From positions 1 through 64,000 of the forward strand of contig JAVJQW010000049.1 in assembly GCA_040218735.1 (NCBI GenBank): DNA of 64,000 nucleotides. The letters are read 5' to 3'. This document shows positions 42,631 to 58,843 of the stretch, piece after piece. The translations under genes were made by a program, and so were the position numbers. The stretch's first letter is position 1; each line of letters starts with the position of its first letter. The DNA comes from Deltaproteobacteria bacterium (GTDB lineage: Bacteria > Myxococcota > Kuafuiibacteriia > Kuafuiibacteriales > Kuafuiibacteriaceae). The notes beneath the pieces were generated by a model. It was not told the DNA's origin, did no database searches, and saw only the letters and a list, made by a program, of their open reading frames with translations.

Positions 42631-43398
42631 ATGGACGCGCGCGCCCCGAGCTGCGATGCGAGGCACACCGTGAGCTTCGTGCTCGACCCGCCTTTGCACC
42701 TCGATCTGTCGGTGCCCTGTTCGCCCGAGCTCGCGGCCGAGCGGCTCGGTGCGCGGCTCACCGCGGTCGCGACGTTCGTGCCGGAGGGCTCGATCCCGGT
42801 CGACGTCGGCACCGACCACGCGCGGTTGTTGATCGCGTTGGTGCGTTCGGGGCGGTGTCCGACGGGCATCGGCGTGGACGTCGCGGAGGGGCCGTACCGC
42901 CGCGCGAAGCGTGCGGTCGCGGGCGCGGCGATGTCGCATCTGATCGCGGTTCGTCAGGGTGACGGGTTGGCGCCCGTCGATCCGGGGGAGGCGGACGTCG
43001 CGGTCCTCGCGGGCTTCGGCGGGCGCACGGCAAACGCGGTGCTCGCCGCGGCGTCCGATCGGCTCCCGATTCGGCGGTGGGTCGTGCAGGTGAACCGGGA
43101 CGTCCCCGCGGTGCGGCGTTCGTTCGAGGCGCGCGGCCTGGCGATCGTGGACGAAGCGTTGGTGTTCGACGACGGCCGGGTGTTCGTGGTGATGGCCGCG
43201 GAGGCGGGGGAGATGGCGTTGTCGGACGCGGACGCTTGGCTCGGTCCCAGGCTTCGTGCGGAGCGGTCGCCGTTGTTCGTCGCGTGGGTGAGGTCGCGGC
43301 GCGATCACCTTCGGGCGCTCGCGGCGAAGGGGCACCTGTCGGGCAAGTCGCGCGAGGAGCTGTCGATCGTCGAAGCGGAGCTTCCGGGTTCCTGCTAG
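42631..43398 (+). CDS. trmK: tRNA (adenine22-N1)-methyltransferase-like
   Basis: RL.AVA.FV..DVGTDHA..DV.EGP..GDGL..AGFGG motifs; start uncertain. Confidence 0.82.
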   Translation: MDARAPSCDARHTVSFVLDPPLHLDLSVPCSPELAAERLGARLTAVATFVPEGSIPVDVGTDHARLLIALVRSGRCPTGIGVDVAEGPYRRAKRAVAGAAMSHLIAVRQGDGLAPVDPGEADVAVLAGFGGRTANAVLAAASDRLPIRRWVVQVNRDVPAVRRSFEARGLAIVDEALVFDDGRVFVVMAAEAGEMALSDADAWLGPRLRAERSPLFVAWVRSRRDHLRALAAKGHLSGKSREELSIVEAELPGSC

Positions 43399-43410
43399 GC
43401 TCCGCGCCCA

Positions 43411-44232
43411 ATGGGTTACCGATGGTGGTGCGCGGCGTTCGTTCTGTTCAGCGCGAGCCCGGCGTACGCGGGTGGGTTCACGCAGGGCGAGGGCGGCTAC
43501 TACGTGAAGGCGTGGACGCGCTCGTTGATCGGCAACAAGGCGTTCGACACGGCGGGGGATCTCGTGGAGCTCCCGGAGTCGTTCTCGGACCACGCGTTGA
43601 ACGTCTACGGCGAGTACGGCCTGACGAACGACGTGACGTTGCTGATGTACGTCGTGCCGTTCGGCTACAGCGCGTACGGCGATCAGTCGCAGCTATACGC
43701 GGGGACGTTGTCGGTCGGGGCGCGGCATGCGCTGTGGTCGGGGTCGCAGCCGTTGGCGTTGGAGGTCCGCGCGGGCGGGCGTCCGGCGGTGGGTGACGAC
43801 CCGCTCGCGGAGGGGGTGCTCGACACGGGCCCCTACGTGGTGCGAGCGACCTTGCCGACGTTGTTCTTCGACGCGGAGCTGCAGGCGGCGGCCGCGTTGC
43901 CGTACGGGTTGTGGCTCTCTGCGGGGGCGGGCGCGCGGCTGCACTCGCGCGATGGGTTGTCGCCGGCGTTGTTCTCGAACCTGCAGCTCGGGTGGTCGTC
44001 GTCGTTCGGCTTGGTGCTCGACCTGCACGCGCAGGCGTACTTCTCGGTGGATCGGCCGGACATCATCGACGTGTTGGGTGTGGGCCAGACGGACTACATC
44101 GGCTTCGGTGTGGGCGCGGCGTACTGGATCACGGACGGCTTCGGCGTGACGTTGGGTTTCGACTCTGCGGCGCTCGCGCGTGCGAATGCGGGGACCGCGC
44201 CGATTCAGATCGGTGTTCAGCTCAAGGGTTGA
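43411..44232 (+). CDS. Hypothetical outer-membrane beta-barrel protein
   Basis: Signal peptide (AYA) and amphipathic beta pattern. Confidence 0.6.
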   Translation: MGYRWWCAAFVLFSASPAYAGGFTQGEGGYYVKAWTRSLIGNKAFDTAGDLVELPESFSDHALNVYGEYGLTNDVTLLMYVVPFGYSAYGDQSQLYAGTLSVGARHALWSGSQPLALEVRAGGRPAVGDDPLAEGVLDTGPYVVRATLPTLFFDAELQAAAALPYGLWLSAGAGARLHSRDGLSPALFSNLQLGWSSSFGLVLDLHAQAYFSVDRPDIIDVLGVGQTDYIGFGVGAAYWITDGFGVTLGFDSAALARANAGTAPIQIGVQLKG

Positions 44233-44269
44233 TTCGGGGGGCCGATAGCAGGGGGTGGAGGTCGTCCCC

Positions 44270-44605
44270 ATGTCGAACCCGAAAGACGCCAACTACCGCA
44301 ACCACCCCCGCGCCGCGGTCCGCTGGGCCGCCTACTGGACCGACGGCCTGCGCGCGCGCACCGGCGAGATCCGCGACATCTCCAAGGGTGGCCTGTTCCT
44401 GTCCCCGGCGTGGCGCCCGAGCACCACGTACAGCCCCGGCGACGAGATCGAGATCCGCTGCGCGATCGAGGATCTGTCGATCGACCTGAAGGCGGTCGTC
44501 CGCTGGTCCGGCACGAGCGAGCAGCACGCCTGCGAGGGCTTCGGCCTCGAGGTCCCGGCTACGGCGGACCTGGAGCGGCTGCTCGAGGCCGCCGAGAAGA
44601 ACTAG
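44270..44605 (+). CDS. PilZ domain protein
   Basis: RNHPR and DISKGG c-di-GMP motifs. Confidence 0.88.
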   Translation: MSNPKDANYRNHPRAAVRWAAYWTDGLRARTGEIRDISKGGLFLSPAWRPSTTYSPGDEIEIRCAIEDLSIDLKAVVRWSGTSEQHACEGFGLEVPATADLERLLEAAEKN

Positions 44606-45956
44606 AGGCGTCGTTCGCTCGCTGCGACGCGAGCACCCCGCCGATACACTCGCCGGTGACTTCGCCGACGACCCACCCCAGCGTTCCGAGCAGGAGCGTG
44701 AGCACCACCCGTCCGAACAAGACGCCCGCGACGATGCCGGCCTCGGTCGCGAGGCCGTGGGCGATCGCTTCGGAGGTCGTCGGTATCTCTTCGTCGGAGA
44801 GAAGGCGGGACAGCACCGTGACGACGATGAACTGCGCGAGGATCGTGAGCGCGGGGACGCCGACCGGCTTCATCACCACGCTGACGAGCAACGCACCGAC
44901 GACCGGGTACTTGATCGCGGGCGCGAGCCGGGTGCGCGCGAGGGCGAGCGCGGCGACAAACGAGAGGATGAGGCCCTCCATGTCGTTCGACTCGAGCGGC
45001 GTTCCGATGACTTGGCTGAGGCTGCGGTAGCCGCCGCTCATGAAGAGGAAGTAGGCGAGGGTCACGGTGACCGCGAGGATCGCGAGCACGTTGGTCACGC
45101 TGCGAATCAGCGGGTGGTCGGAGGGGATACCGGGGCGGTCGACGGTGGCGGGGCGAAAGGCTTCGACCGCGAGCCACAGCAGTCCGATGGACGCGAAGCC
45201 GAGGGCGATGAGTGAGATGGGTTTGGCGGTGACCGAGCCCGGGAGGCTGATGCCGACGCCAATCGACGTGACGACCGCCGTGTACTTCGCGAGGCGGGCC
45301 CCGTGTGGTCCGAAGGTGCCGTCGCGGCGGGTGACGGCTTCGGCGAGCGCAGGTTCGACGGCGATGCGCGCGTAGCGGAAGATCAGGACCGCGTTGAGCA
45401 TCACGACAGCGAACAGCGCGGCGACCTGCGTGGGTGGCAGCGGCGCGTCGATCTCTTGCATCACGACCGCGCCGACGCCCGCGCGGATGAACAGCGCCAC
45501 CAGCTGGATCACGAGGTACCCGAGGAAGCCGGTATTGAAGAGGAGGAACATGCCGAGCACGGCGACTGCGATGACGTAGCCGTTGCTCTGTCCGGTCGTG
45601 GCGGGGGGAGCGACCGCCGGTGGGGGTGTTGCGTCTTCACGTGTGACGGCGCCGTCGGTGGCGCTGACGTAGGTTCGTGCGTCGATCGTCTCGACGCTCC
45701 AGAACGGGAAGTAGACGAGCGGGAGCGTCGAGGTCGCGTCGATGACGACCCCTTCTGGAGCGCCCTCGACGAGCGGGCAGCGTGCGGGCAGCGGGAGCTT
45801 CGACGCCGGATCGCGGGGCGCCACGGCGGCGCGCTTCTTGTGGAGGATGAAGGGGATCCAGACGAGCTTCGTGACGTGCTCGGCGTCGGCGGGGACTCCG
45901 GCGACCGCGCGTGCAGCGTCGGCGTCGAGGTTGGGCGGTGCGTGGCGCGCGTTCAT
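44559..45956 (-). CDS. Hypothetical polytopic membrane protein
   Basis: Start MNARHAPP overlaps the upstream stop; many TM segments. Confidence 0.65.
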   Translation of the reverse strand: MNARHAPPNLDADAARAVAGVPADAEHVTKLVWIPFILHKKRAAVAPRDPASKLPLPARCPLVEGAPEGVVIDATSTLPLVYFPFWSVETIDARTYVSATDGAVTREDATPPPAVAPPATTGQSNGYVIAVAVLGMFLLFNTGFLGYLVIQLVALFIRAGVGAVVMQEIDAPLPPTQVAALFAVVMLNAVLIFRYARIAVEPALAEAVTRRDGTFGPHGARLAKYTAVVTSIGVGISLPGSVTAKPISLIALGFASIGLLWLAVEAFRPATVDRPGIPSDHPLIRSVTNVLAILAVTVTLAYFLFMSGGYRSLSQVIGTPLESNDMEGLILSFVAALALARTRLAPAIKYPVVGALLVSVVMKPVGVPALTILAQFIVVTVLSRLLSDEEIPTTSEAIAHGLATEAGIVAGVLFGRVVLTLLLGTLGWVVGEVTGECIGGVLASQRANDASSSSRRPRAAAPGPP

Positions 45957-46879
45957 GGCAGCCCCTTCGGCGCGCCGTGTTTCGAGCAGGTCGGCCCGGC
46001 GTTCGTCGAGTGGATGGCGCCGCCGTAGGGACACTCTCGAACCAGGAGCTGGTTGCTGTGGCAGCGTAGGATCTCTCCGTAGGAGGGGCCACCGAGCGCC
46101 ATGGCGACGGTCTGCGCGAAGCCGAGGTGGCTCGCGGAGAGCAACCAACCTCCGGAGGTGGTGATCGCGCCCGCGACGAGCATGCGCACAGCGGGGGATG
46201 CGAGCGGTCGCTCGGGGAGCTTCACGAGCGCGAGGGGTGAGCGACGGGTGCGTCGTGACCAGAGCCCGAGGAGCACGGCGAGCACGACGACCATCTGACC
46301 GAGGTCCCAGAGGGCGTCGGTCGGCCAAGGGCTGGGGGCGTCGGCGGGCGCTGCGGTTGGCGTGGGGTGCGCGTGACGAGGTCTACCGCGGTAGTCGACG
46401 GACCGCATGACGTCGCCGATGGTGTTGAATTCGATGCGTTTGCCGACGCGGCGTCCGTGGTCGAACTCGCCGCGCTCGGCGATCGCGCCGTCGGGGTACC
46501 AGTGCTCGTAGGGGCCGTGGCGGAGGCCTTCGTCGTAGTGGCCGACGTAGATGACGGCGCCGTCCTCGGCGTAGTCCACCCACCGCCCGGTGCGTTTGCC
46601 GGCGTTCATCTGTCCGACGCCGAAGACCACGGGCGGAACCGCGGTGTTGCGGATGTCGATCACGGGCCCGTGCAATCGTTGGTTGGCGTCGAGGCAACCG
46701 CGTCGCAGCGGGAAGGGGCCGTCGCGAACGGCGCCCATGTCCCATCGTTCGAGCTTCATCGTCGTGGGCGTCGTGCCGGGCGGGCACACGATCGGTGCGT
46801 CGGTGGCCGGCGCGCGGCTGGAGGTGTCCGTCCCGCCGCACGCGTGGAGGAGCACGAAGGCGGGGACCCAGCGGCGCAT
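45953..46879 (-). CDS. MORN-variant repeat lipoprotein with C-terminal TM segments
   Basis: LHAC lipobox; G.Y..G.RHG.Y..WY.DG repeats. Confidence 0.7.
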   Translation of the reverse strand: MRRWVPAFVLLHACGGTDTSSRAPATDAPIVCPPGTTPTTMKLERWDMGAVRDGPFPLRRGCLDANQRLHGPVIDIRNTAVPPVVFGVGQMNAGKRTGRWVDYAEDGAVIYVGHYDEGLRHGPYEHWYPDGAIAERGEFDHGRRVGKRIEFNTIGDVMRSVDYRGRPRHAHPTPTAAPADAPSPWPTDALWDLGQMVVVLAVLLGLWSRRTRRSPLALVKLPERPLASPAVRMLVAGAITTSGGWLLSASHLGFAQTVAMALGGPSYGEILRCHSNQLLVRECPYGGAIHSTNAGPTCSKHGAPKGLP

Positions 46880-47031
46880 GCGCGCGACGATAGCACCGAG
46901 CGGGCGGCACCGTGGGCCTGGCCGCCAGGTCAGCGAGCACCTTGGCGACGGGTGGAGCGTGCCGGTACGATTCCGTATCCACCTTGCCGAATGCGGGTGA
47001 ACCGTTCGCGGGAAGCCAAGGTGATTCTCAC

Positions 47032-47949
47032 GTGAACTCACTGGAGTCGACGATCGCCGCGATTCGAGAAGCGGGCCTTGTCGCGCGCCGATCTCCAGAA
47101 GGTGGCAACTGCATTGTCGGCGGCCTTCGCGAGACGTTGACGCCTGACGGCGTGCAGCTGGCCGAGTATCCCTTCGTTATTTCGCCCGACCACGACGGTT
47201 GGCGCCTTCGGACCACGCATGTCGGACGCGGTGAGTTGGAGACGACCCACGGCACCCTGTCCGAACTGTTGCAGGCGCTGAAGGTGTGGAGCGAGGAGCG
47301 GAGGCGCGAGAGAATGGCGCCGTTGGGCGAACGCGCTTCAACTTGGTTCGTCGATCCACCCCTCGCCGAGGCCAGCGTGTCGATGGCCTTCGCACCACTG
47401 GAGGCGTTGGGCCTCTTACGGAGCTTCGACTCGGACTTGATATGGCTCAGGCAGTTCAGTCGTTTCGGTGGCAGAGAGCCGACCGTCGTCCTCGAGCCTC
47501 CCAACACGGCTTGGACCGATGTCTCGGAGGGCGAGAGCGACGTCGGCCCGTACATCTTTGGTCGAATCTGTGTCGACGACTTGAGCGATGATCAGCTGCT
47601 CACTTTTGTCACGCGATCGAGCTTCGGTGTTGATTCGCTGATTGTGGCCTGGGGTACGAGCGACGTTGCTACAGGAATCTCGGACCTCCGCCGTGTTCTC
47701 GAGGAGCGCCGCGCCGCCAAGAGGCTCCCGATCGAAGAGTCGCTTCAGCGTCGCTTCATTCGCAGGGTTCTGGCCGTCGAAAAGTCCGGAGGTTTCATCG
47801 TGACGGCAGTGCGGGGGGACACTGCGAGGTTCATGCTGATCTTGACCGGTGCTTCGATGATCGGGACGGTCCTCCGCAGTCACGGTGTCAGCCCCATCTC
47901 CGCCATCCCACGCGACGAGATCGGATACCGTGTCTCGCCGATATTCTAG
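47032..47949 (+). CDS. Hypothetical protein (island cargo, possible immunity protein)
   Basis: GTG start; lower GC than flanks; bracketed by motif copies at 46997 and 47960. Confidence 0.55.
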   Translation: MNSLESTIAAIREAGLVARRSPEGGNCIVGGLRETLTPDGVQLAEYPFVISPDHDGWRLRTTHVGRGELETTHGTLSELLQALKVWSEERRRERMAPLGERASTWFVDPPLAEASVSMAFAPLEALGLLRSFDSDLIWLRQFSRFGGREPTVVLEPPNTAWTDVSEGESDVGPYIFGRICVDDLSDDQLLTFVTRSSFGVDSLIVAWGTSDVATGISDLRRVLEERRAAKRLPIEESLQRRFIRRVLAVEKSGGFIVTAVRGDTARFMLILTGASMIGTVLRSHGVSPISAIPRDEIGYRVSPIF

Positions 47950-48004
47950 TGTCACTCGCGTGATCGATCCTCGGAATCCACGATGACGCCGCCAAGGCGA
48001 TAGA

Positions 48005-48346
48005 ATGCTGGTCGATGTACTCCAGAGCAGGCTGGCGCCGATCTTGACTGACTACGCATGGTCTTTTGAGAAGGGCATTGCGGTGATGCACTTTCTTCAT
48101 CAGTACCACGTGGTCTTTGAAGATGGATTCAGCATGAATGGCGACAGACACAATGAAGTGCTTGGCTTTGCGGAGGCATCGGAGTTGGTCTCTCGGCTAT
48201 GCGGCAATCCGAAAAAGTCTCCAACGTGGTGGAAGTCGCGTGCGCCCGCAGGGTTGGTCTCGTCCAGGAGACTTGCTGATCTTCTGGATGAACTCGTCGT
48301 CTTGTTTGAGTTCGATCCGGGGGTGCGAGGCGTGAGTGCTGATTGA
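48005..48346 (+). CDS. Small hypothetical protein, orphan immunity-like
   Basis: 113 aa, markedly lower GC, bounded by motif copies. Confidence 0.55.
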   Translation: MLVDVLQSRLAPILTDYAWSFEKGIAVMHFLHQYHVVFEDGFSMNGDRHNEVLGFAEASELVSRLCGNPKKSPTWWKSRAPAGLVSSRRLADLLDELVVLFEFDPGVRGVSAD

Positions 48347-48403
48347 AAAGAAGTGAACCATATTCTGCGAGAAGACCGCGAAGTGACCCAGGAGAAGTGA
48401 GCC

Positions 48404-51294
48404 ATGTTCTGGAACCAGCGTGGAGACGTTCTGGTGGCGCACGCGCATCTTCAGACTGGTGAGTCCGGCGTCGGGTCGCCGACCGCGCTGCGGAGCTTCG
48501 CCTACGACTCGGGCCACCGGCTCACGTCCATCACTATGCGTGACCTGTCGACCGTGACGTTCGGGAACTTCCATCCGGTGCACCAACTGCCGCAGACGAT
48601 GAGGATGGCGTCCGCGGGGTCGATCAACTCCAGCTACAACGACCGTGGTGATCTGGTGAGCCTGACGACCGTCGACGGTGCCTACTCGGAGACCAACACG
48701 TATGTCCAAGATGCGCTCGGGCGTCCGCGTCGAGCCGACATTGCGAACGGGGCGAGCGTGGAGCTCGATAAGGATCCCAACAGGGGGGCGTGCAGCACGT
48801 CCGCGACTCTGCGGGGCGCCTCGAAAGCCTGACATACGCGGGAAGCGCGATGATGTCGGTGTCGGACTATGCGATGGCCTCGGCCCCGGGTACGGTGGTC
48901 CTCGGCAACGGCGTGGACCGTGTAGACGACTACGATCAGCGACGTCGACTGGTCAGCCGGACGTACGTGCAGGGCGGCAACATCGTCGCATCGTTTCGTT
49001 ACGCGTATGACAGCGCGAACCGAGAGGTCGCTCGGGTGGATGTCCATCGCGCGGGTCGCGCGAACCTCTACAGCTACGACCAGGAACGCCTGGGTACGGC
49101 GAACATCGGCGCGCGCCCGACAGTGTTCGGCTCTCTCCCGACGAACGGTGACTTCGGGGTGGGCGATGCGCACTTCACGTCGGTCTACGCACCGATCACG
49201 TTCGACGATCGCCTCCAGGAAGTGGTCACTCAGGTACCCGTGGGCGAGTCGACGCCTGAGATCGCGGAGCTGTACCAGGGCTACGACGCGATGGGCCATG
49301 CGACGCTGCTCGACGGGGTTGCGCGGACGCGAGACTCACTCGGTAACGTGACGTCGACGCCCTCCGAACAGGGCACGCTCGCCCTGGACTACGACGTCCG
49401 GTCGCGCCTGCGACAGGCGACGCGCCCCGACGGGTCGACCGTCACGTACGATTACCGTGCCGACGACGCGCTCTTGGGGCGCACCGTGACTTGCGCCGTG
49501 GGGGCGGCGGACTGCGTGGACTCGAACCGAGTGTACGTCTACGACGGGCTGCTCTTGCTCCAGGAGCACGAGCAGGGCGCAACGCCCTCGCTGCGCGCGC
49601 AGTACTTCTACGCCGATGAGGGCGACGTACCGTTCGCGGCGGACCTGTGGAACGCGACGACGCAGCAGCTGGAGCGCTACTACTACGTCGTCGATCGCAT
49701 GGGCTCGGTGGTGGGCTTGATGGACGCGTCGGGGCAGGTGGTCGAGCGCATCGACTATACGGTGTTCGGGTACCCGCAGATCACGGGGCAGGACACGGCC
49801 GCTCCGGCGGTCTCTTCGGTGCGCAGTGACGGGAGCGGTCGCTTGGAGCTGGTGTTCTCGGAGCCGGTAGACCCGGCGGTGTCGGGGACGCCGGTGCCGG
49901 TGTCGAACGGTCAGGTGGGCATCGAGGTCAATGACCTGACTTCTCACATCACCGTGCGTGACGGGCAGGGCGCCACGGTCGCGGTGACCGACGTGACCGT
50001 GGTGTCGGACGCGGCGCATCGGTACGGAACGGTGTACTCCTTGACGACCACGCCGCTGGCCGCGGGGATCTCTTATACGGTGGACGTGTCGGCGGGCGCG
50101 GTTCAGGACGCTTGGGCGAACTTGAGCTCTGCGCAGGCCGTGACGGTGACCTACGCAGCGGCGGCTGGGACGCTGCAGGCTACGGGGACGGTGGCAGGCA
50201 GCACGGCGCCGGCGGTCTTGGCGAGGAGTGCGGTCGGGAACTCGATCGGGTTCCAGGCGCATCTGCATGACTGGGACGTGGACTTGGTGCTGGCGAGGGC
50301 GCGGGTTTATGACGCGCGGTCGGGGATGTTCCTGCAGAGGGACCCTGAGGGGTATGAGGATAGCGTCAACCTGTATGCCGGGATGCGGTGGGATCCGGTG
50401 AACCTGAGGGATCCGACGGGACGGGCGACGGGTGACCCACGGTTCTACATGTCGCAGGCGCTCGGGCAGCTCATCGAGTTCTTCACGGGAGGCCGTGCGG
50501 ATCCCGCACGGGACAAGAAGCCGAAGCTCAGTGGGCGCGGTGGTGTGGTCGGGGGTGCAGTGGAGGCCGCTTGCTTCCGGTGCGGCTACCTTGAGTCGGA
50601 CAGGACGGGCCTGAGTTCGATCGGTGCGGATCACGGCGCCGGGATGGTGCCGTACCTCGACTCCGGAATGACTCTTGCGACTGGCGAAGATGTGCAAGGT
50701 CGAGAGGTTGGGCGGGGAGAAGCGGCGCTTCGGTTTGGACTTGAGGTCTTGCCCCTGGCTGTTCCCGCAACGCGACGCCTTCGTAGCGGGCCCAATCGCC
50801 GAATCGCATCGGGTGACCTGAGTCTCGCCGCGACCGATGAACTGCCAGGTGCGGCGGTGTTCACCAAGGAGGCCGATGAATTCGGAAGAAACGCGCAGAA
50901 GGCAAAGCCCGTTGACGGGTACACGGATATTGCTCTTCATGGTGGAGACGACTTTGTGTCTCAGGTCCCGAATCCGAGACTCGACGAGAAGATCTCGTCG
51001 GATCAGTTTGCCCGGTTGCTGAAGCGGTCGCCGTCCTACAACGGAGGTCCTATCCGCCTTATCGCCTGCGATACCGGATCGTGCGCTACGGGGTTCGCCC
51101 AGCAACTATCCAATGCGCTGGGTGTTAGGGTTCGTGCTCCATCGACCTATGTGTGGGCATTGCCGGATGGTACCCTCTTTGTTGCGGACCCTGTTAGGGT
51201 TCTGGTTCGCGGCCCGTCTGGTCTTGGAGTTCGGCAACTTCCAGTAGCCGATCTCACGAAGCCTGGGACGTGGGTCGATTTCGATCCGGAGTAA
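48404..51294 (+). pseudogene. 5'-truncated Rhs (YD-repeat) toxin gene with a frame break near 48785; C-terminal His/Cys protease-like toxin
   Basis: YD repeats in ORFs 48404-48832 and 48790-51294. Core motifs DRMGSV..YTVFG, ARVYDARSGMFLQRDP and NLYAG..DPVNLRDPTG. C-terminal IALHG..IRLIACDTG..FAQQLSNALGVRVRAP. Confidence 0.88.
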
Positions 51295-51295
51295 C

Positions 51296-51577
51296 TTGGC
51301 TATGCTTCCCGCATCTCTGTGCTTCCTAGAAGCCTGGGTAGAACGCTTCGGTTGCCTGACCGAGACTGCGTCCTTTGCGAAAATTCATGAAGAGGCAACA
51401 GACGATGAACTTGAGCGGCTGTCTCAGATCATGACTGAACTGCTCATGGGTCGGCCTCTATCACTTCAGGCTGCGTTTCTTGCATTGGATGAGGTACAGG
51501 ACGAAGAGGTGAGGGTGAGAGCCACGTCACTTCTCTGTGCGATTCTACCGCGGATGGGTCAGGGGAGCGAGAAGTGA
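51296..51577 (+). CDS. Putative cognate immunity protein
   Basis: Small acidic low-GC ORF directly after the Rhs stop; its stop codon lies inside a GAGAAGTGATCC partial motif. Confidence 0.65.
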   Translation: MAMLPASLCFLEAWVERFGCLTETASFAKIHEEATDDELERLSQIMTELLMGRPLSLQAAFLALDEVQDEEVRVRATSLLCAILPRMGQGSEK

Positions 51578-51599
51578 TCCGGAGAAGGGATCCAAGGAG

Positions 51600-51779
51600 G
51601 AGAAGTGATCCATCCTCCGGATCCACTGAGTAGATTCTCGTTGCTCTGATTTGTCGTAACGCAGAAATATCGGAAGGGCTCTTGAGGGCGAGAAGTGATC
51701 CATCCTCCGGATCCACTGAGTAGATTCTTGTTGCTCTGATTTGTCGTAACGCAGAAATATCGGAAGGGCTTTTGAAGGG
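51600..51779. repeat. Near-perfect 90-bp tandem duplication
   Basis: Units start at 51600 and 51690, each beginning GAGAA followed by the 22-bp motif. Confidence 0.95.
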
Positions 51780-51921
51780 GATTTCCTCTTCTTCTTAGCC
51801 GCCGTCTGAGGCCCTTCGCGAACCCGTGCCCGAGCGCGCTGCGCTCCTCCTCCTGAACCCTCTCTGTCGCTTCGTGGTGGGCCCGTCCGGGCCTGAACTC
51901 ATCCCTCAAGATCAGCTTCGC

Positions 51922-52836
51922 TCACGCGGCCGCGGCGGCCTCGACGGGCCATCGGAGTGGCAGCCTTGGCCTGAAGGTGTGCTCGGGGAAGTAGGTCCCG
52001 AGTCGCCCTTTTCGGAACGCCGCGCTGGCCTCTCTGTAGGTCATGACGAACCACCGCCACCCATCGCGGAACGCCATCCAGGCATCGCGGGTGGATGCGT
52101 GACAGAGGGGCGCAGGTCCGCGCTTGGTGCGCTCGGGCTCGTGGAGCGGGTCGGTCGCGAGGACGGTCTCGACGCCGAGGACGTCGCCGCTGCGGTCGCG
52201 TGCGAGTCGGTCCTCGCGCTGATGGATCGCCGCGCGAACGTCTTCGAGGTCGAGGGTGTCGTCGGTGTCGAGGTGGAGCTCGACGCGCTCGGTGAAGTCT
52301 TCGCGGGAGGGGACTTCGTCGCCGAGGCGCATGGCGCGGTCGAAGGCGCGGCGGTATCGCTTCCAGTGAAAGCGCGCGCAGGGAAGGGTGACGGCTTGGC
52401 CGCCGCACCAGGCGACGAGTCCCGGCCAGTCGCGGTGGGAGCGCACGAGGCCGGCGGCGGGGGGATTGGTGACGGTGTAGACGATGCGGTTGGCGAGCGC
52501 TTCGTCGTCGACGATTTCGATCGCGGAGTAGCGCCGCTCGAGGACTTGGCCGCGCACCTGGTCGACGGCGTTGAGGGCTCGGGCGAGCTGACCGTCGAGG
52601 TACTCCATGAGGTCGGCGAGCTGGGAGCGCTCGTCGGTGAGGACGAGGTGAAAGTGATTCGACATCTGGACGGCTGCGTGAAGGCGCACGCCGTCGCATC
52701 GCTTCAGGGCCTTGGCGAGGAAGAACTTGAAGAGCTCTGTGCGGTCGATGTCGGGCGTGAGTCGGAACTGGGATCGCGCGCATCGTACGGTGACGAACCA
52801 ACGTGCGCCGGGCGTGAGTCTTCTTGGTCTTCGCAT
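51922..52836 (-). mobile_element. RAYT / IS200-like Y1 HUH transposase
   Basis: MRRPRR..FVTVRC, QMSNHFHLV (HUH), RGQVLERRY, YTVTNP..AGLV..DWPG; intact 304-aa ORF. Confidence 0.92.
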
Positions 52837-53104
52837 GCGCGAGGGGAAGAGCAACGCTCGCGCCGTCCCGTCCGCGGTGTGTCTTGGTCGACGGTCGTCC
52901 GATAATCGGACTTCGTCCGAAGCTGTCCGAAAGTCGAAAGTGTTTCGGTCATCCCGCTTTGCGTGTGGCGCGCCACCCCCGCCCACCCGCGGGTCCGTCG
53001 GCTCGAGCGGATGGTTGATGCGGGGGGCGGAGTCGCTTTGCTTGCGGAACTGCCTCGCCTCCGATGGGGGCCCGCTGCGGGGTCCCGGGCCGTCGAAACC
53101 CCCG

Positions 53105-53834
53105 GCCACGACGGAGCCGCAACCGTCGAGCCGAAAGGCCCGCCTGTGCGAGCGCCTGGCCCGTACCGAGCGAGTCGCCCGCACATCCTCGCTTCGCGAA
53201 GGGGCGTCCGCCACCGCCCCTCGGAGGCCCGCTGCGCGGGCCTAGAAGAAGAGGGGCCGCCTCGCCGCGCTTGCTGTCGCGGGTGCCGTAGGTCGGGGAT
53301 CGCTGCTGCAGGGCAGCGACCCGGACCTCGACGTCTGAGGGTTTGGTCACCGCTCTCGCTGAGCGTCTTGCTGCCCCGCTGGTCTCCGCTATCGACGACG
53401 ACGACGACAGCAACCGTAAGCCTGTGAAGCTGTCCGCGGCAACCTGTCGACGCGCACGGTGATGACGAACGGTGGTGGGTACGCAGAGACCGACCCCAAC
53501 GAGGACGGCTCGGTGGCGCGGCTGACATATCCGCGGACGAGCGGCGTGGTGACGCGTGAACCATCCTCGGGATCCACTGCGGCGACGACGGCGTCGAGTC
53601 CGTCGTCCTCGTTGCCGTGGGCGAGGACCGCGAGCTCGGGCTTCTGTCTGGCGGCTTCGCGATCTCGGGTCCAGGCGTGGCGCGCGGTTGCAGGACGAGA
53701 GGCTGGAACAAGGAAGTCGCCTGGGACGATGGAGATCGGGTCGTGTCTGCGAATGGGAATCGGCGCATCGACGAAATCGGGATCGAAGAAGCGCGCCACG
53801 ACGGAGGCGCAACCGTCGAGCCGAAAGTCCCGCC
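53105..53834 (+). repeat. Pair of 40-bp direct repeats (53105-53144, 53795-53834) with an internal GACGG/CCGTC hairpin
   Basis: GCCACGACGGAGSCGCAACCGTCGAGCCGAAAGKCCCGCC, two mismatches between copies. Confidence 0.85.
53430..53555 (+). pseudogene. Short Rhs-like remnant ending at a motif copy
   Basis: VRGNLSTRTVMTNGGGYAETDPNEDGSVARLTYP resembles YD-repeat sequence (compare DRGDLVSLTTVDGAYSET near 48640). Confidence 0.45.
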
Positions 53835-53845
53835 GCCGCCGAGGC

Positions 53846-54141
53846 CTAATGCAGCCGGTCGTGCCAGTAGTCGGGGTGCTGCTTGAAGTGCGCGAAGGCG
53901 ACGATGATGGGCTCGCGTCGACGAAGGCGATGAGGATCTTGTAGGGGAAGCGGTCGACGATGAAGCGTCGGACCTCGGCGTCGACGCCTGAGAGCTGGGT
54001 TCCCGCTCGCGGGAACCGCTCGGCAAACCGAACACGACGGTCGACGGTGCGCGCGAATCGGTCAGCGGTGCTTGGGCTCTCGGCTCGGAACTCGAAGGCG
54101 GCGGCCTCGTACTCGAGGACGGCCTCTTTGAGCCACTTCAC
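53846..54141 (-). pseudogene. ParE/RelE toxin with a 1-nt frameshift near 53915
   Basis: EAVLEYEAA..FPRAG..VRRFIVDRFPYKIL; the canonical end IIVAFAHFKQHPDYWHDRLH* is in another frame. Confidence 0.82.
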
Positions 54142-54377
54142 GAAATAGGCTCTTCGAGCTTCCTCAATAGGTCGCGCTGAACGTCCTCGTGGTCGACCGT
54201 CTCGGCCTCGCCTGTGCGGAGGGCATCGATTCTCTTTTGGACGGTCTCTCGGAGCTCGGGCTCCAGCTCGGGTGGCTCCGTCGAGAGGTGCTCGATCAGC
54301 GTATGAGCCGTGAGTTCCTGCTCCTCGCGTTTGAGCGCGAGGGCATCCGCGATGACCTTCAGCACGTCTCCGGACAT
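54138..54377 (-). CDS. Addiction-module antitoxin
   Basis: ALALKREEQELTAHTLIEHL..KRIDALRTGEAETVDHEDV; overlaps the toxin start. Confidence 0.82.
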   Translation of the reverse strand: MSGDVLKVIADALALKREEQELTAHTLIEHLSTEPPELEPELRETVQKRIDALRTGEAETVDHEDVQRDLLRKLEEPIS

Positions 54378-54507
54378 GCCGCGCATGCTAGCGACCCGGG
54401 GTGTACTTTCCAAGCCCGAAAGTGATGACGTGCCGAGTCCTGTGCCTTCTGGTTTGATGGTTCTATGTATATTTACAATATTACACTAAGTGTTTGATGG
54501 GGCGATC

Positions 54508-54750
54508 GTGACGCGGCGTCATCGGACGAGTAAGGCGCACCCGGCGACCGCACGGACCCGGAGGGCTTTGCGGCGCTGCTCGATGCAGACGACGGATTGG
54601 ATGCTCATACGGATTCGCTCCCCCGAAGGTGCAGCTGATCGAGCGGTCGGTGGACGCTTTCATCGCTTGGTGCGACCAGCGCGGCGTGGTGCGCCCGAGC
54701 CAACGTGACGCGCCCGGTGCTGCAGCGGTACGCGCGACATCTACCGCTAG
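54508..54750 (+). pseudogene. N-terminal remnant of an Xer-like tyrosine recombinase
   Basis: Frameshifted pieces GDRTDPEGFAALLD / DWMLI / AFIAWCDQRGVVRP / VTRPVLQRYARHL; ends at the motif copy at 54753. Confidence 0.65.
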
Positions 54751-55041
54751 ACGTGATCCATCCTCCAAATCCACGTACGACCCCCGCTACGACGGGCGCC
54801 GGCGTACGACCACGGCGGGCGGCCTACTGACGACGGCGCACGCCGGAGTGTTGCGCGTGAATCGCCAGGCGAGCAGCGCCGGTCGGGGTTGGTGATTGAC
54901 CGGGTGCTCGACGCGCATCGCCGCGAGTCTGGTACTGGCGTGCCCACGTCCCCTCGCACACACTGGCGTTTTCGGCGAACGGCGGTCGGCGGGCTCCAAA
55001 CCGCTTGCCCCGCCGCCACAAAGACGCCACGAATCACGGCC

Positions 55042-55704
55042 ATGCCGACCGTCGAGATCACCGACGCCAACTTCGAGTCCGCCGTGTTGCAGTCGGAGCT
55101 GCCGGTGCTGCTCGACTTCTGGGCGACGTGGTGCGCGCCCTGTAAGGCCGTGGCGCCGGTGCTCGAGGAGCTTTCGGAGCAGTACGCGGGGAAGTTGGTC
55201 ATCGGGAAGCTCGACGTGGATGCGTCGCCGCAGACGGCGCAGATGTTCGGGATTCGTTCCATCCCCACGCTGGTGCTCATGGACCAGGGCAAGCCGGTGA
55301 AGGCCGTGCAGGGGGCGCAGCCGAAGGAGGCGCTCGTGGAGCTGATCGAGTCGAACGTCGCCGGGCTGCGCGCGCCGACCGTGAAGCCGGAGGAGCTGGC
55401 TGCGCTGATGCAGCGCGGGATGCCGATCGTCGTGTTCGACCTTCGCGACCCGCGCGACGTTTCGCGCAGTCACTTGCGGCACGCGAAGACGGTCGCCGCC
55501 GACGCGTTGCCCGCGGCGATCGCCGAAGCGGATCCGCGGTCGCTCGTCGTGCTCGTGTGCCGGACCGGAGAGATCTCTTCGGAGGCCGCGGCGAAGATCG
55601 GGCAGCCGAACGTCGTCGCGATCGAGAAGGGCCTCCTCGAATGGGAGGGCGCCGGGTTCGAGACTTTCAGCGACCGCGAGGAAGCCGAGCTCGACGCCGG
55701 CTGA
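55042..55704 (+). CDS. Thioredoxin fused to a rhodanese-like domain
   Basis: DFWATWCAPCK and GIRSIPT, then FDLRDP..SHL..VLVCRTGEIS..GLLEW. Confidence 0.9.
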   Translation: MPTVEITDANFESAVLQSELPVLLDFWATWCAPCKAVAPVLEELSEQYAGKLVIGKLDVDASPQTAQMFGIRSIPTLVLMDQGKPVKAVQGAQPKEALVELIESNVAGLRAPTVKPEELAALMQRGMPIVVFDLRDPRDVSRSHLRHAKTVAADALPAAIAEADPRSLVVLVCRTGEISSEAAAKIGQPNVVAIEKGLLEWEGAGFETFSDREEAELDAG

Positions 55705-56223
55705 TCAGCGCATCGCAGGGATCGCGTCGGGGCGGGCGAATCGATCGCGCAGGACCGCGAGCTCGTCGCGACGCACCTCGACGGAGCGACCGTTCTCGAG
55801 ATCCTCCAGCACCAAGCTCCCGTCTTCGCTCAGACCGCCGCGGCCGATCTCCACACCGTCCGCGAGGACGCGGAAGCTCTCGGCTTCGCGCTCGAGCCGG
55901 TACTCGCGGTCGCCGACCTGCACGACCACGGCGTCCTCCGACTCCGACTTCACTTGCGCCGTCGCTCCGCCGCCGAGCGGGTTGGAGCCCGTCCAGAACT
56001 CGATCAGGTTGAAGATGATCGCGTCGCCGAGCGTGATGAGCTCGTAGACCGGGATGATGACCAGGACCCAGAACACGATCGTGTTGAGGAACTTGTTGCC
56101 GAGGCTTCCGTTCCAGGTGTGCAGCTTCTTCGTGAGCGCGAAGCTCCCGTAGCAGCCGGTCGTGCCGACCGTCGCACCGGTGATCGTCGTAGCTGCGAGG
56201 AGAGCGATGAGGCGTTTGTTCAT
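55705..56223 (-). CDS. DUF3332-like lipoprotein
   Basis: GCYGSFALTKKL..IPVY..D..IFNLIEFWTGSNP. Confidence 0.8.
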   Translation of the reverse strand: MNKRLIALLAATTITGATVGTTGCYGSFALTKKLHTWNGSLGNKFLNTIVFWVLVIIPVYELITLGDAIIFNLIEFWTGSNPLGGGATAQVKSESEDAVVVQVGDREYRLEREAESFRVLADGVEIGRGGLSEDGSLVLEDLENGRSVEVRRDELAVLRDRFARPDAIPAMR

Positions 56224-56324
56224 GCGGCGCGGTATGCCGCGTGGGGACGCGCCGTCGCCATACACGACGCGGCGCTTTTGTATTCGTCCGGAGGGTGGGC
56301 GACAACCCGCGGTGGGGTCAGCGA

Positions 56325-57851
56325 TCAGACACCGTCGACGAGGCGCTGGATCTCCATGAGCGCGTCGCGCGCGGTGGCCGCTCGGGTGAGCTCGGCGCGC
56401 ATCGTGTCGAGGTCGGCCTGGAGCTGATCGCGCGCGGCACCGAGGTCCGCGATGCGACCCTCCGCGAGCTGCAGCTCCGCCGTCGTCGCCTCCAGCGCGT
56501 CCTTGAGCTCGGCGCCCTGCGCGCGGGACTTCGCGAGGGCCTCGTCCTTGTTCTCGAGCTCCTGCTCGAGCGCGCCGAGCAGCTCGCGCTGACGCTGGTC
56601 GAGCTCGGTGAGCTCCGTGATCCGATCGAGGACGCGGTCGCGCTCCTCCGCGAGCGCCTCCGACTCCTCGATCAGCTCGTCCGCGACCGCCTGCCGCTCC
56701 GTCGCGAGCGCCTCCGCCTTCTCGCGAGCCTTCTGCTCCGCGTCGAGGCGCTGCGTCAGCTCCGCGACGCGCCGGTCACGCTCCGCCAGCTGCTCGGCGA
56801 GCTTGCGCTTGTCGACCTGCGCGGTCTCCAACGCCTCGCGGAGCGAAGCCACGGTCTGACGCACACGCGACGCCGTCGCGGCCGGCGCGGGGGCTGGCTC
56901 CTCGGTGCGCTTCGCCGCGACCGCGAGGCGAGCCTTGAGGGCGTCGATGCGAGCGCGACCGGACTGCACGACGTCGGCCGCCGGGACCTCGAGGAGGGGG
57001 CGTCGGGAGGACGGCGGCGTGGTGGCGGCCGCGGGCTGCGCAGTGGTGGGGGAGGTCGCCGATGGGGGCGTCGGCGCGGCGATGGGGGCCTGCGCGGATG
57101 CGGTGGGTGCGGGCGCAGCCTGGGAGGCCGACGCGGGCGTCGGTGCGGATGCTGGGGCCGCCACAGGCGTGGACGGGGATGCGGTGGCTGCCGGTGTCGT
57201 GGCCGGGGCCGATGCGGCGCCGGACGCCGGTGGTGGTGAGGCTGCGGGGGCCGAGGCCGGTGACGGCGCCGGGGCTGCGGTCGCAGCGGGGACGCTCGCG
57301 GATGCCGAGGCGGACTCGGTCGCGGCTATGGGCTCGGGTTCGGACGCAGACTCCGGTGCGGCCACGGAACCGGACGCGGCCACGGAACCGGACGCGGACT
57401 CGGAATCGGACGCGGCCACGGAATCGGACTCGGAATCGGACTCGGAATCGGACTCGGAATCGGACTCGGAATCGGACTCGGCCACGGAGTCGGACGCGGA
57501 CACGGACGCGGACACGGACACGGTTGCGGACGCGGACTCGGGTGCGGCCACGGACTCGGACGCGGACACCGCCTCGGGTTCCGTCACCGCCTCCGGCACC
57601 GGCACCACCTCGGCACTCGCGGGCACCTCCGCCTTCGCCGCGGCAACACGCCCCGCGTCCTTGCTCTTACCCCTCGGCGCCTTGGCTCGGGCCTTCGCCT
57701 TTTCGGGACCCGGACCGGAACCGGGACCCGGACCGGGTGGGGTGGGGAGCTCCGACGGGACCTCGTCGCTCACGGGCAGGTCCGCGAGCATCGTGCCCAG
57801 GCGGGTGCGCGGCTTCTTCTTCGAGACGTTCTTCGAAAACGCGGACTTCAT
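56325..57851 (-). CDS. pomX: PomX, coiled-coil activator of the PomZ ATPase
   Basis: N-terminus MKSAFSKNVSKKKPRTRLG resembles the M. xanthus PomX activating peptide; low-complexity linker; C-terminal coiled coil; synteny. Confidence 0.85.
   Translation of the reverse strand: MKSAFSKNVSKKKPRTRLGTMLADLPVSDEVPSELPTPPGPGPGSGPGPEKAKARAKAPRGKSKDAGRVAAAKAEVPASAEVVPVPEAVTEPEAVSASESVAAPESASATVSVSASVSASDSVAESDSESDSESDSESDSESDSVAASDSESASGSVAASGSVAAPESASEPEPIAATESASASASVPAATAAPAPSPASAPAASPPPASGAASAPATTPAATASPSTPVAAPASAPTPASASQAAPAPTASAQAPIAAPTPPSATSPTTAQPAAATTPPSSRRPLLEVPAADVVQSGRARIDALKARLAVAAKRTEEPAPAPAATASRVRQTVASLREALETAQVDKRKLAEQLAERDRRVAELTQRLDAEQKAREKAEALATERQAVADELIEESEALAEERDRVLDRITELTELDQRQRELLGALEQELENKDEALAKSRAQGAELKDALEATTAELQLAEGRIADLGAARDQLQADLDTMRAELTRAATARDALMEIQRLVDGV
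57330..57570. repeat. Coding 12/18-bp tandem repeats (SDSE/SVAA) in pomX
   Basis: (CGGACTCGGAAT)n and GGCCACGGAACCGGACGC units. Confidence 0.9.
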
Positions 57852-58843
57852 TGCATCTGCTCCGTGGCTACCGGCTCCGGCTGGGACGGCGTGACTTGGG
57901 CCGTCGCCGGGGCGTGGATGGCGTCGATCATGGTCTGGACGTCGGCGGCGCCCTTGCTCGACGGGTCGAACAGGAAGATCGGCGTGCCCTCGCTCGAGGC
58001 CTGGGCGAACGTCGTGCACTGCCGGACCACCTCCGGGAGCAGGTACTCCGGATAGTGCTCCGCCAACGCGTCCCGCGCGGCGCGGGCGATCTTCGTGGTC
58101 GGGTTGAACTGGTTGATCACGATGAAGACGCGCTCGAGGCGGTGGTCGAGATCCTCCGCGATGTCGTCCAGCGTCTCGAACAACAGCTTCAAGCCGTGGA
58201 ACGACAGGAAGTCCGGCAGCACCGGCACGATGAGATCGTCGGCCGCCACAATCGCGTTCAGGTTCAACAACCCGAACGAGGGCGGGGCGTCGAGCACCAC
58301 GTACTCGTACTCGTCCTGCACCGCCGCCAACGATCGCTTCAAACGATTCTCGCGGTTCGACATCGGCATCAGCGACAGGTCCACCGTCGCCATGCGCAGG
58401 TTCGACGGAATCAGATGCAGCTCCGGGATCTCCGTCTCGATGCGGACCTCCGCCATCGGGACCTTCTTCACGAGGACCTCGAAGAGCGTCGCATCCTGCT
58501 CCTCGCCGTCGTAGCCGACGCACTTCGTCGCGTGGCCCTGCGAGTCGAGGTCGATCAGCAGCACGCGGTGCCCCAGCTCCGCCAGGCGCTGCGCGTAGGA
58601 CACCGACAGCGACGTCTTCCCCGTTCCACCCTTGAAGTTCAGGAACAGCTGCGTCCGCAGCGGCTGCCGCGCGGGTTGCCGCGCGAGCCGCGCGCGGTAA
58701 CGCGAGAGGTCACCGAGCGGATAGGTCTCCTTCGGGCCGCCGAGCTCCGACAGCACGCCGACGCGCTCCAGCGTCTCCAGCTCGTCGACCGACATCGACA
58801 GCAGCTCCGCCATCCGCTTCTTGGGGTACGTCACGTCCTCCAT
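57848..58843 (-). CDS. pomZ: PomZ ParA/MinD-family ATPase with N-terminal HTH-like extension
   Basis: NFKGGTGKT, IDLDSQGHAT and LDAPPS motifs; lies between pomY and pomX. Confidence 0.88.
   Translation of the reverse strand: MEDVTYPKKRMAELLSMSVDELETLERVGVLSELGGPKETYPLGDLSRYRARLARQPARQPLRTQLFLNFKGGTGKTSLSVSYAQRLAELGHRVLLIDLDSQGHATKCVGYDGEEQDATLFEVLVKKVPMAEVRIETEIPELHLIPSNLRMATVDLSLMPMSNRENRLKRSLAAVQDEYEYVVLDAPPSFGLLNLNAIVAADDLIVPVLPDFLSFHGLKLLFETLDDIAEDLDHRLERVFIVINQFNPTTKIARAARDALAEHYPEYLLPEVVRQCTTFAQASSEGTPIFLFDPSSKGAADVQTMIDAIHAPATAQVTPSQPEPVATEQMQ

Follow-up and report, generated by a model that had tools for sequence, protein, structure and literature searches.

The described systems closest to the locus reported here are the REPtrons of E. 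coli, Stenotrophomonas and Marinomonas, in which a REP-associated tyrosine transposase (RAYT, or TnpA-REP) of the HUH/Y1 type goes together with repetitive extragenic palindromes (REPs) numbering tens to hundreds genome-wide. The REPs that have been studied carry a GTAG next to the palindrome, with cleavage at CT and one active strand, according to the part of PMC8266576 drawn on here. Highly abundant flanking 16-mers are reported for RAYT groups 2 and 3 only, and RAYT groups with few flanking repeats exist (PMC5581495, in outline), and some TnpA-REP subclasses with a large conserved C-terminal domain have no REPs, according to the abstract of Quentin et al. 2018 (PMC6006769). We analysed a window of 64,000 nt (positions 1-64000 of contig C29, JAVJQW010000049.1) from the genome of a myxococcotal bacterium (GCA_040218735.1), in which copies of a 22-bp motif, GTGATCCATCCTCCGGATCCAC, surround a RAYT-like gene within an island at about 46.9-54.9 kb. 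The motif may well be the cognate terminal, REP-like recognition site of this adjacent two-domain HUH/Y1 transposase, with its marking of gene junctions a by-product; we hold this reading with about even confidence. The motif would mark seams because it is an element terminus, lying between genes as REPs do, and not because of dedicated cassette capture.

The locus resembles REPtrons in its single-copy HUH/Y1 gene, whose best fold match is 4er8, and in short, sharp near-palindromes on both sides of the gene and just after stops, including one inverted doublet (51574/51605). It differs in that the motif has 5 copies in 6.8 kb, no 5' GTAG, a weak hairpin and direct flanking copies, and in that the protein has an extra conserved C-terminal domain of ~150 aa and scores 54.9 against an NCBIfam cut-off of 80. 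The two-domain architecture and the lack of a genome-wide REP family are shared with the REP-less C-terminal-domain subclasses, whereas conserved ends, reiterated units and gene-less end pairs occur here and in sister genomes, and the abstract of PMC6006769 describes none of these. The IS200/IS605 elements (IS608, ISDra2), whose left and right ends bear subterminal hairpins on one strand, have the same catalytic fold; as in that group, the window gene has direct sites on both sides (-720, +206) and its relatives are multi-copy in two genomes (G007, G002). However, the window gene itself is single-copy, the ends of its relatives are inverted and ~45 bp long, and Pfam Y1_Tnp matches only at E 0.066. 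Inverted ends of ~45 bp are not known to be typical of IS200/IS605.

The motif, its copies and its exclusivity

The genome (11.6 Mb, 70 contigs, GC 68.8%) was scanned on both strands by mismatch count to the 22-mer, and the window was tested against 100 shuffles. With at most 3 mismatches the motif occurs five times in the window, always on the + strand, with 0 matches in the 100 shuffles. The copies and the transposase gene lie as follows (ORF A and ORF B are open reading frames, ORFs, to the left of an Rhs gene).

47960-47981, + strand: motif copy with 3 mismatches, 10 nt past the ORF A stop and 24 nt ahead of the ORF B ATG
48397-48418, + strand: weak motif copy with 6 mismatches, preceded by GGAGAA and holding the ATG (48404) of the truncated Rhs gene
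51574-51595, - strand: partial inverted partner of the 51605 copy (arms 51576-51592 and 51607-51623, 17 nt, 88% complementary)
51605-51626, + strand: canonical motif copy with 0 mismatches; the alternative toxin/immunity module of public run X3 stops at 51600
51695-51716, + strand: canonical motif copy with 0 mismatches, in the second unit of a 92-bp tandem duplication, 206 nt downstream of the RAYT stop
51925-52836, - strand: intact RAYT-like HUH/Y1 gene (protein P0001, 304 aa) with a conserved C-terminal domain
53556-53577, + strand: directly oriented motif copy with 2 mismatches, lying 720 nt upstream of the RAYT start
54753-54774, + strand: motif copy with 2 mismatches at the right edge of the island, ~230 nt before conserved thioredoxin-region homology (~55001)

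Genome-wide, the mismatch spectrum is 0:2, 2:2, 3:1, 4:0, 5:19, 6:99, 7:808. The spectrum has a clean gap at four mismatches; all copies with up to 4 mismatches (n=5) belong to the island and fall within 6.8 kb around the RAYT-like gene. The first-pass annotation had described the motif as present in one orientation and as not noticed elsewhere in the window, and both descriptions hold; with no other such copy in 11.6 Mb, the motif is not a genome-wide intergenic repeat. A genome-wide REP was accordingly ruled out as its identity, and the genome-wide palindrome repetition expected of RAYT/TnpA-REP was not found. The copy list itself was correct for the five strong copies. The 48397 copy is plausible, sharing the upstream GGAGAA and being of a kind (6 mismatches) of which ~0.07 would be expected by chance in the island; the copies proposed at 46997, 48353 and 48383 each have more than 7 mismatches, indistinguishable from chance, and the one at 51574 is better read as the inverted partner of 51605.

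The segment at ~46.9-54.9 kb is unique in the genome (blastn), and no other repeat family was found for 46-56 kb (14-mer count and blastn over the genome). Among 20 genomes of the family the motif has one 1-mismatch match, in a genome without a RAYT-like gene (G005); our estimate for chance is ~0.5. A search of 185,579 species genomes gave 3 unrelated matches, and metagenomes gave 1 unrelated contig. Elsewhere in the genome, a low-GC intergenic stretch of contig C70 (60150-60290, - strand) has at 60215 a 15-nt identity to the right part of the motif and its flank (GGATCCACTGAGTAG), with GGATCCATTCC nearby; this match is probably due to chance, since no RAYT paralogue lies on that contig.

The repeated unit is sharply 22-24 bp in each copy, and the flanks diverge at once. 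The 51605 and 51695 copies lie in one tandem duplication (51600-51691 and 51690-51781, 92 bp, 95.7% identical), so that the strong copies count as 4 independent ones. All 5/5 strong copies have ATCCTC at positions 8-13, and substitutions fall in the arms. Each copy is located 0-25 nt ahead of an ORF or past a stop. The half-site GAAGTGA occurs seven times on the + strand of the window, six of them in clusters at 48350-48394 and 51571-51692; those near the weak copy are at 48350, 48380 and 48394.

These clusters bear on the possibility that the motif is a passive or regulatory repeat that plays no part in recombination, being either a palindrome of the operator kind or a short sequence that local duplication or gene conversion has spread. 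The half-sites GAGAAGTGAnCC, present three to four times at 48346-48403 and 51565-51611, are operator- or iteron-like, the combination GGAGAA-GTG/ATG resembles a ribosome site with a start codon, and one copy pair clearly arose by tandem duplication. The other copies, however, have only 22-24 bp in common with abrupt edges, unlike duplication or conversion tracts, and the placement of the copies relative to the RAYT-like gene stays unexplained. No regulator was identified, and the promoter and terminator scan of 46800-55100 gave nothing above shuffles and no promoter-like site. We consider this explanation unlikely.

The same anatomy can be read as GTGATCC / ATCCTCC / GGATCCAC, that is, as the duplex core site of a tyrosine recombinase of the integrase/Xer type, with inverted arms of 7-8 bp and an asymmetric 7-bp spacer, the array being the leftover att-type sites of serial integrations. 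The invariance of ATCCTC, here a part of the spacer, and arm changes that break hairpin pairs suit such a site, as do the direct orientation of all copies and a marginal XerC-like match just left of the 54753 copy (E 0.088 over 28 aa). That match is all that was found of the integrase remnant proposed in the first-pass annotation, and six-frame searches of this stub with PF02899 and PF13495 gave no match at E<=10. There is no intact recombinase among the island ORFs, and no tRNA or other usual attB was found in the window. A tyrosine-recombinase site, which would also leave the reiterated half-sites and the RAYT-family end anatomy unexplained, appears improbable to us.

The proposal that copies mark gene junctions held for the 47949 stop (10 nt gap), the immunity gene stop (TGA 51575-51577, overlapped by the 51574 partial copy) and the start of the truncated Rhs gene. 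The integrase remnant and a second Rhs scrap were not confirmed as such; the scrap is not similar to the local Rhs gene, and neither Pfam nor NCBIfam matches it at E<=1.

The RAYT-like enzyme and the ends of its homologues

Judged by its sequence and its modelled fold, the gene between the motif copies is that of a RAYT-like HUH/Y1 enzyme, as had been proposed. P0001 matches the NCBIfam model REP_Tyr_transpos (NF047646) at E 8.4e-15 (54.9 bits, under the curated cut-off of 80) and Pfam Y1_Tnp at E 0.066 (score 13.8, cut-off 23); sequence and profile searches of the PDB gave no match. The AlphaFold (AF2) model (pLDDT 77, pTM 0.75) has as its best Foldseek match 4er8_A (E 1.1e-5, TMt 0.68, 142 columns), a structure of the REP-associated tyrosine transposase of E. 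coli in complex with a REP hairpin, followed by IS200/IS605 transposases. Residues H61, H63, Y120, N124 and P125 are invariant in 9/9 aligned homologues and 6/6 strain variants, and a C-terminal block (P243, C245, Y267, R268 and others) is invariant in the alignment of nine homologues. In 4 further strain variants the protein remains whole (94-100% identity), while its neighbours decay.

The gene has no other close copy in the genome, where 5 distant paralogues were found at ~E 1e-4. The family with these two domains is a large one, 612 cluster representatives matching at E<=1e-30; one relative bears the source name 'REP element-mobilizing transposase RayT'. Of 401 genomes sampled from the phylum, 6 have matches at E<=1e-50 (the genome of the window counted), all of them in its family, and matches at E<=1e-10 are present in 8/20 genomes of this family, again with the own genome included. 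The genes are multi-copy in G007 and G002, and the G007 copies are mutually 67-78% identical, over the coding region only.

We oriented 15 homologue loci by their gene and compared their surroundings. In 10/15 loci G[GA]TG[GA]CAC (mostly GGGTGGCAC) is located 210-290 nt past the stop, in a layout of a short GCAAC...TGC segment, then G[GA]TG[GA]CAC, then a locus-specific unit that is re-iterated after GCAC; an inverted form of this end lies 136-181 nt upstream of the gene in 4/15 loci. The G[GA]TG[GA]CAC end is missing at L012, L014, L016, L019 and L024, with a variant end at two of these, L014 and L019. In L015, L020, L034 and L038 the end is copied in tandem at periods of 41-133 nt, and the window has a comparable 92-bp copy. 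An L014-type end repeat is present in G013 at the 3 homologue loci only, and in G015 (L054-L057) end pairs surround a gutted gene (L055) and no gene at all (L054). Reiterated-unit ends of this kind may be an undescribed architecture of the C-terminal-domain subclass. At L020, L034, L038, L021, L031, L011, L025 and L015 the layout is GGGTGGCAC followed by a 7-18-nt locus-specific unit repeated after GCAC. The closest homologue, in L011 (G004:C29; 50% identity, one in-frame TAG), adjoins an IS91-type Y2 transposase with a zinc-binding domain.

Read in gene orientation, the window locus has the form ...GAGCAAC(A/G)AGAATCTACTCA GTGGATCCGGAGGATGGATCAC TTCTC..., with the motif starting at +206 and +296 past the RAYT stop and GGATCAC itself at +224 and +314; its end comprises the 92-bp tandem copy and re-iterated GGATCAC-TTCTC half-sites. 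In position and architecture the motif matches the end anatomy of the family. The suggested look at related genomes gave ends of similar anatomy near RAYT homologues, but not the motif itself beyond the chance-level G005 match.

The neighbours of the homologues are of another kind than those in the window. When the open frames of 140 aa or more in the flanks of the 15 loci (~1.5 kb; 125 frames) were compared with Pfam at E<=1e-6, the matches were to housekeeping families (thiamine enzymes, amidase, thiolase, 3-hydroxyacyl-CoA dehydrogenase, adenylosuccinate synthetase, sigma factor, flagellin, RNase T, OmpA), and the homologue genes occur singly amid such genes, with one IS91-type transposase among the neighbours. 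Rhs, toxin-antitoxin or immunity families adjoin the gene at 0/15 loci within these flanks.

Strain variation and the function of the motif

Parts of the island are present in twelve public runs, and the contigs of four of these (X2-X5, three studies) were compared with the window over 43000-59000, break points being counted where the joint has at least 81 letters on its shorter side. Contig cover in X2-X5 is lacking over, for example, 46.7-48.3 kb and 50.5-51.5 kb, and these gaps are not to be read as absence. A 41-kb contig of X3 tracks the window to 45178 and rejoins it at 48459, 41 nt past the weak 48397 copy, with 26,619 other letters in between. It then has 111 letters in place of 2 at 48768-48771, which explains the frame break of the Rhs gene in the window, and 1,443 other letters replace 50420-51600. 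The left edge of this swap coincides with the end of the Rhs core (~50421), the tip and the immunity gene differing from that point; homology returns at 51600, 5 nt before the canonical 51605 copy. The 26.6 kb that X3 has over 45178-48459 presumably includes the missing N-terminus of Rhs, where the window has the end of a MORN-repeat gene, ORF A and ORF B.

To the right, contigs of X3 (51689-57323) and X4 (51689-53573) indicate that the RAYT block including the 53556 copy is shared, and that the 54753 copy is also present in X3. Both runs have an extra 21-nt motif-like reiteration after 51708, and in the toxin remnant one extra C after 53915 and a loss of 14 nt at 54063; X2 is without 53695-53943. 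An empty-site comparison with a genome of the same genus (G011) lost synteny at ~55001. There are nine credible break points (44767, 45098, 45178, 48459, 48768/71, 50420, 51600, 53695, 53943), of which one falls at a strong copy (51600) and one is 41 nt from a weak copy (48459). Further right, contig depth jumps at 57418-57951 in all four runs (92.8 in X3 compared with ~15-20 nearby), with many short joints at 57491-57741, which suggests repeated or widely shared sequence.

These data bear on the proposal of the first-pass annotation that the motif is an integron-style joining site by which the RAYT captures, excises and reorders conflict-gene cassettes, and on a related version in which alternative downstream ends permit 3' transduction of the ISCR/Helitron kind. 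ISCR elements are a precedent for capture of flanking DNA by an HUH enzyme, and the gene-site-gene-site array in one orientation, each site next to a start or a stop, recalls both these elements (ISCR-IS91) and integrons. The composition of the segments is mosaic and lower in GC (0.51-0.70) than the flanks (~0.69-0.72), and the right edge of the Rhs tip/immunity swap falls at a copy. The copies at 47960, 48397, 51605 and 51695 lie downstream of the RAYT gene in its orientation, so that the immunity gene, Rhs and ORF B would be taken along if read-through reached an alternative end.

Integron attC sites, however, are about 57-141 bp long with a GTTRRRY core and an inverse core, while the unit here has 22-24 bp and no GTT, and the island ORFs include no IntI integrase and the island no attI. 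Rhs loci exchange C-terminal tip/immunity modules at the core. The window follows this pattern, its tip and immunity gene varying between strains from exactly the core end, and the left edge of the swap is thus that of the ordinary homologous route of tip exchange; the locus departs from other Rhs toxin loci in that its variable module is bounded on the right by the motif, at the start of the conserved element, and in that no orphan core fragments were found. No capture event was observed: no contig in the four runs joins two copies or represents an excised form, rare forms being beyond what contigs can show. The cargo is for the most part dead, and conflict genes are absent from the flanks of the homologues, as given above. 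Capture in the integron manner was not borne out by these findings and seems to us a poor prospect, and the comparison of strains for motif-bounded segments yielded one module swap that ends 5 nt from a copy, with most break points elsewhere. We likewise doubt that the two-domain enzyme moves or exchanges neighbouring toxin/immunity and ORFan segments via alternative private 22-bp end-sites. If it did, an Rhs locus would be the site of a single-strand equivalent, driven by an HUH enzyme, of the gene capture of integrons or ISCR elements, and joining of segments at motif sites would be a new route for toxin/immunity gene reshuffling; if it does not, the locus is merely a transposon in a gene graveyard. 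Among the papers listed in the literature search, none concerned a RAYT at an Rhs locus, judged by titles and abstract openings.

Four observations are established for the reading of the motif as the terminal recognition site of the enzyme: the motif is exclusive to the island, the enzyme belongs to the RAYT-like family, ends of one anatomy occur family-wide, and one strain polymorphism has its boundary at a copy. The sharp 22-24-bp limits of each copy and the extra 21-nt reiteration in X3 and X4 also speak for it. Several results weigh against it. Seven of the nine credible strain break points are not near any motif copy. The hairpin, described in the first-pass annotation as a bulged stem, folds as drawn in the canonical copy but is weak (-3.8 kcal/mol, z -0.9, on the + strand; -4.4 kcal/mol, z -1.2, on the - strand) and not above shuffles (36/200 and 21/200, respectively, are equally stable), and in the variant copies pairs are broken with no compensating change; the stable stem-loop conserved among copies that is expected for RAYT/TnpA-REP was not found for the motif. 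Profiles (nhmmer) of the homologue ends miss the motif, both over 48 nt (E<=100) and over the whole downstream region (E<=10), so that the link to the family is positional and anatomical and not demonstrable homology. The motif copies flanking the window gene are direct while the homologue ends are inverted, and the window contains no inverted full copy. Those at 47960, 53556 and 54753 have only 22-24 bp in common with the element. Neither GTAG nor CGTC is found 5' of the palindrome, where the consulted part of PMC8266576 places it; the 5' neighbours read GAAGT, CGCGT, CGCGT and GACGT (+ strand) or CTCA, CGCA and the like (- strand). On the structural side, only the inverted doublet at 51560-51631 (72 nt) is unusually stable (-13.1 kcal/mol, z -2.9, 3/200 shuffles), and folding of the G007 downstream regions gave a weak consensus structure (covariation term -0.72).

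Binding, the position of cleavage and the origin of the solo copies are steps that we infer. The RAYT-like enzyme would bind the motif end (GTGGATCCGGAGGATGGATCAC, then TTCTC, in gene orientation) on single-stranded DNA, nick adjacent to ...CAC via Tyr120 and the H61/H63 metal site, and then rejoin the DNA. Repeated insertion, end reiteration and adjacent deletion or replacement could leave solo ends along the island, which would be an 8-kb, horizontally acquired and strain-variable stretch of decaying genes (Rhs pseudogene, frameshifted ParE, ORFans). In this lineage the RAYT-like proteins with a C-terminal domain appear to possess cognate ends after all, in an unusual pattern of reiterated terminal units and gene-less derivatives, and the confinement of the ends to one island in this genome would make the locus a tractable substrate for testing the function of the subclass.

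Other contents of the island

The remaining features of the island are the following.

47032-47949, + strand: ORF A, 305 aa, of no family; besides its own cluster the only match is a 90%-identical protein from a metagenome-assembled genome
48005-48346, + strand: ORF B, 113 aa, of no family; no relative by word-indexed search
48404-51294, + strand: Rhs pseudogene that lacks its N-terminus and has its frame broken near 48768-48832
51296-51577, + strand: presumed immunity ORF, 93 aa, of no family, assigned by its place after the Rhs tip and swapped with the tip in X3
53105-53144, strand not assigned: 40-bp repeat, second copy at 53795-53834, 95% identical
53846-54413, - strand: toxin-antitoxin remnant, antitoxin 54138-54413 and ParE-like toxin 53846-54141

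The Rhs gene, although broken, has the marks of a polymorphic toxin locus, namely YD repeats (E 6.2e-4), a core (TIGR03696, E 6.4e-13, residues 480-544, nt 50227-50421), a variable tip and a presumed immunity gene. The C-terminal toxin tip (50422-51291) belongs to no known family, and the Atlas search gave weak leads at most. No paralogues of Rhs, ORF A, ORF B or the immunity gene were found elsewhere in the genome. PADLOC detected nothing, and the matches to Rfam were two of snoRNA type, both sub-threshold (E 0.39 and 0.47) and within the Rhs gene, with none at the motif. The antitoxin matches Unstab_antitox (E 7.7e-6), and the coding sequence of the ParE-like toxin (ParE_toxin, E 0.1) is divided between two frames.

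Each copy of the 40-bp repeat, which has a possible CGACGG/CCGTCG stem, lies to the right of a motif copy (51695...53105; 53556...53795), like a second end type; the DNA between the motif copies and the 40-bp repeats is dissimilar. The segment 53556-53834 was tried as an internally deleted element copy and rejected, the interior similarity not being above shuffles. A low-GC inverted pair, CCTCTTCTTCTTAGCC / GGCCTAGAAGAAGAGG, at 51785-51800 and 53239-53254 (88% complementary) brackets the RAYT gene inside the motif-bounded segment and is statistically unexceptional, 36 inverted pairs occurring in 2.4 kb. To the right of the island a conserved thioredoxin-rhodanese gene starts at 55042. Immediately upstream of the antitoxin gene, at 54430-54490, an AT-rich stretch with the palindromic TGTATATTTACAATATTACA is likely the promoter/operator of the toxin-antitoxin pair.

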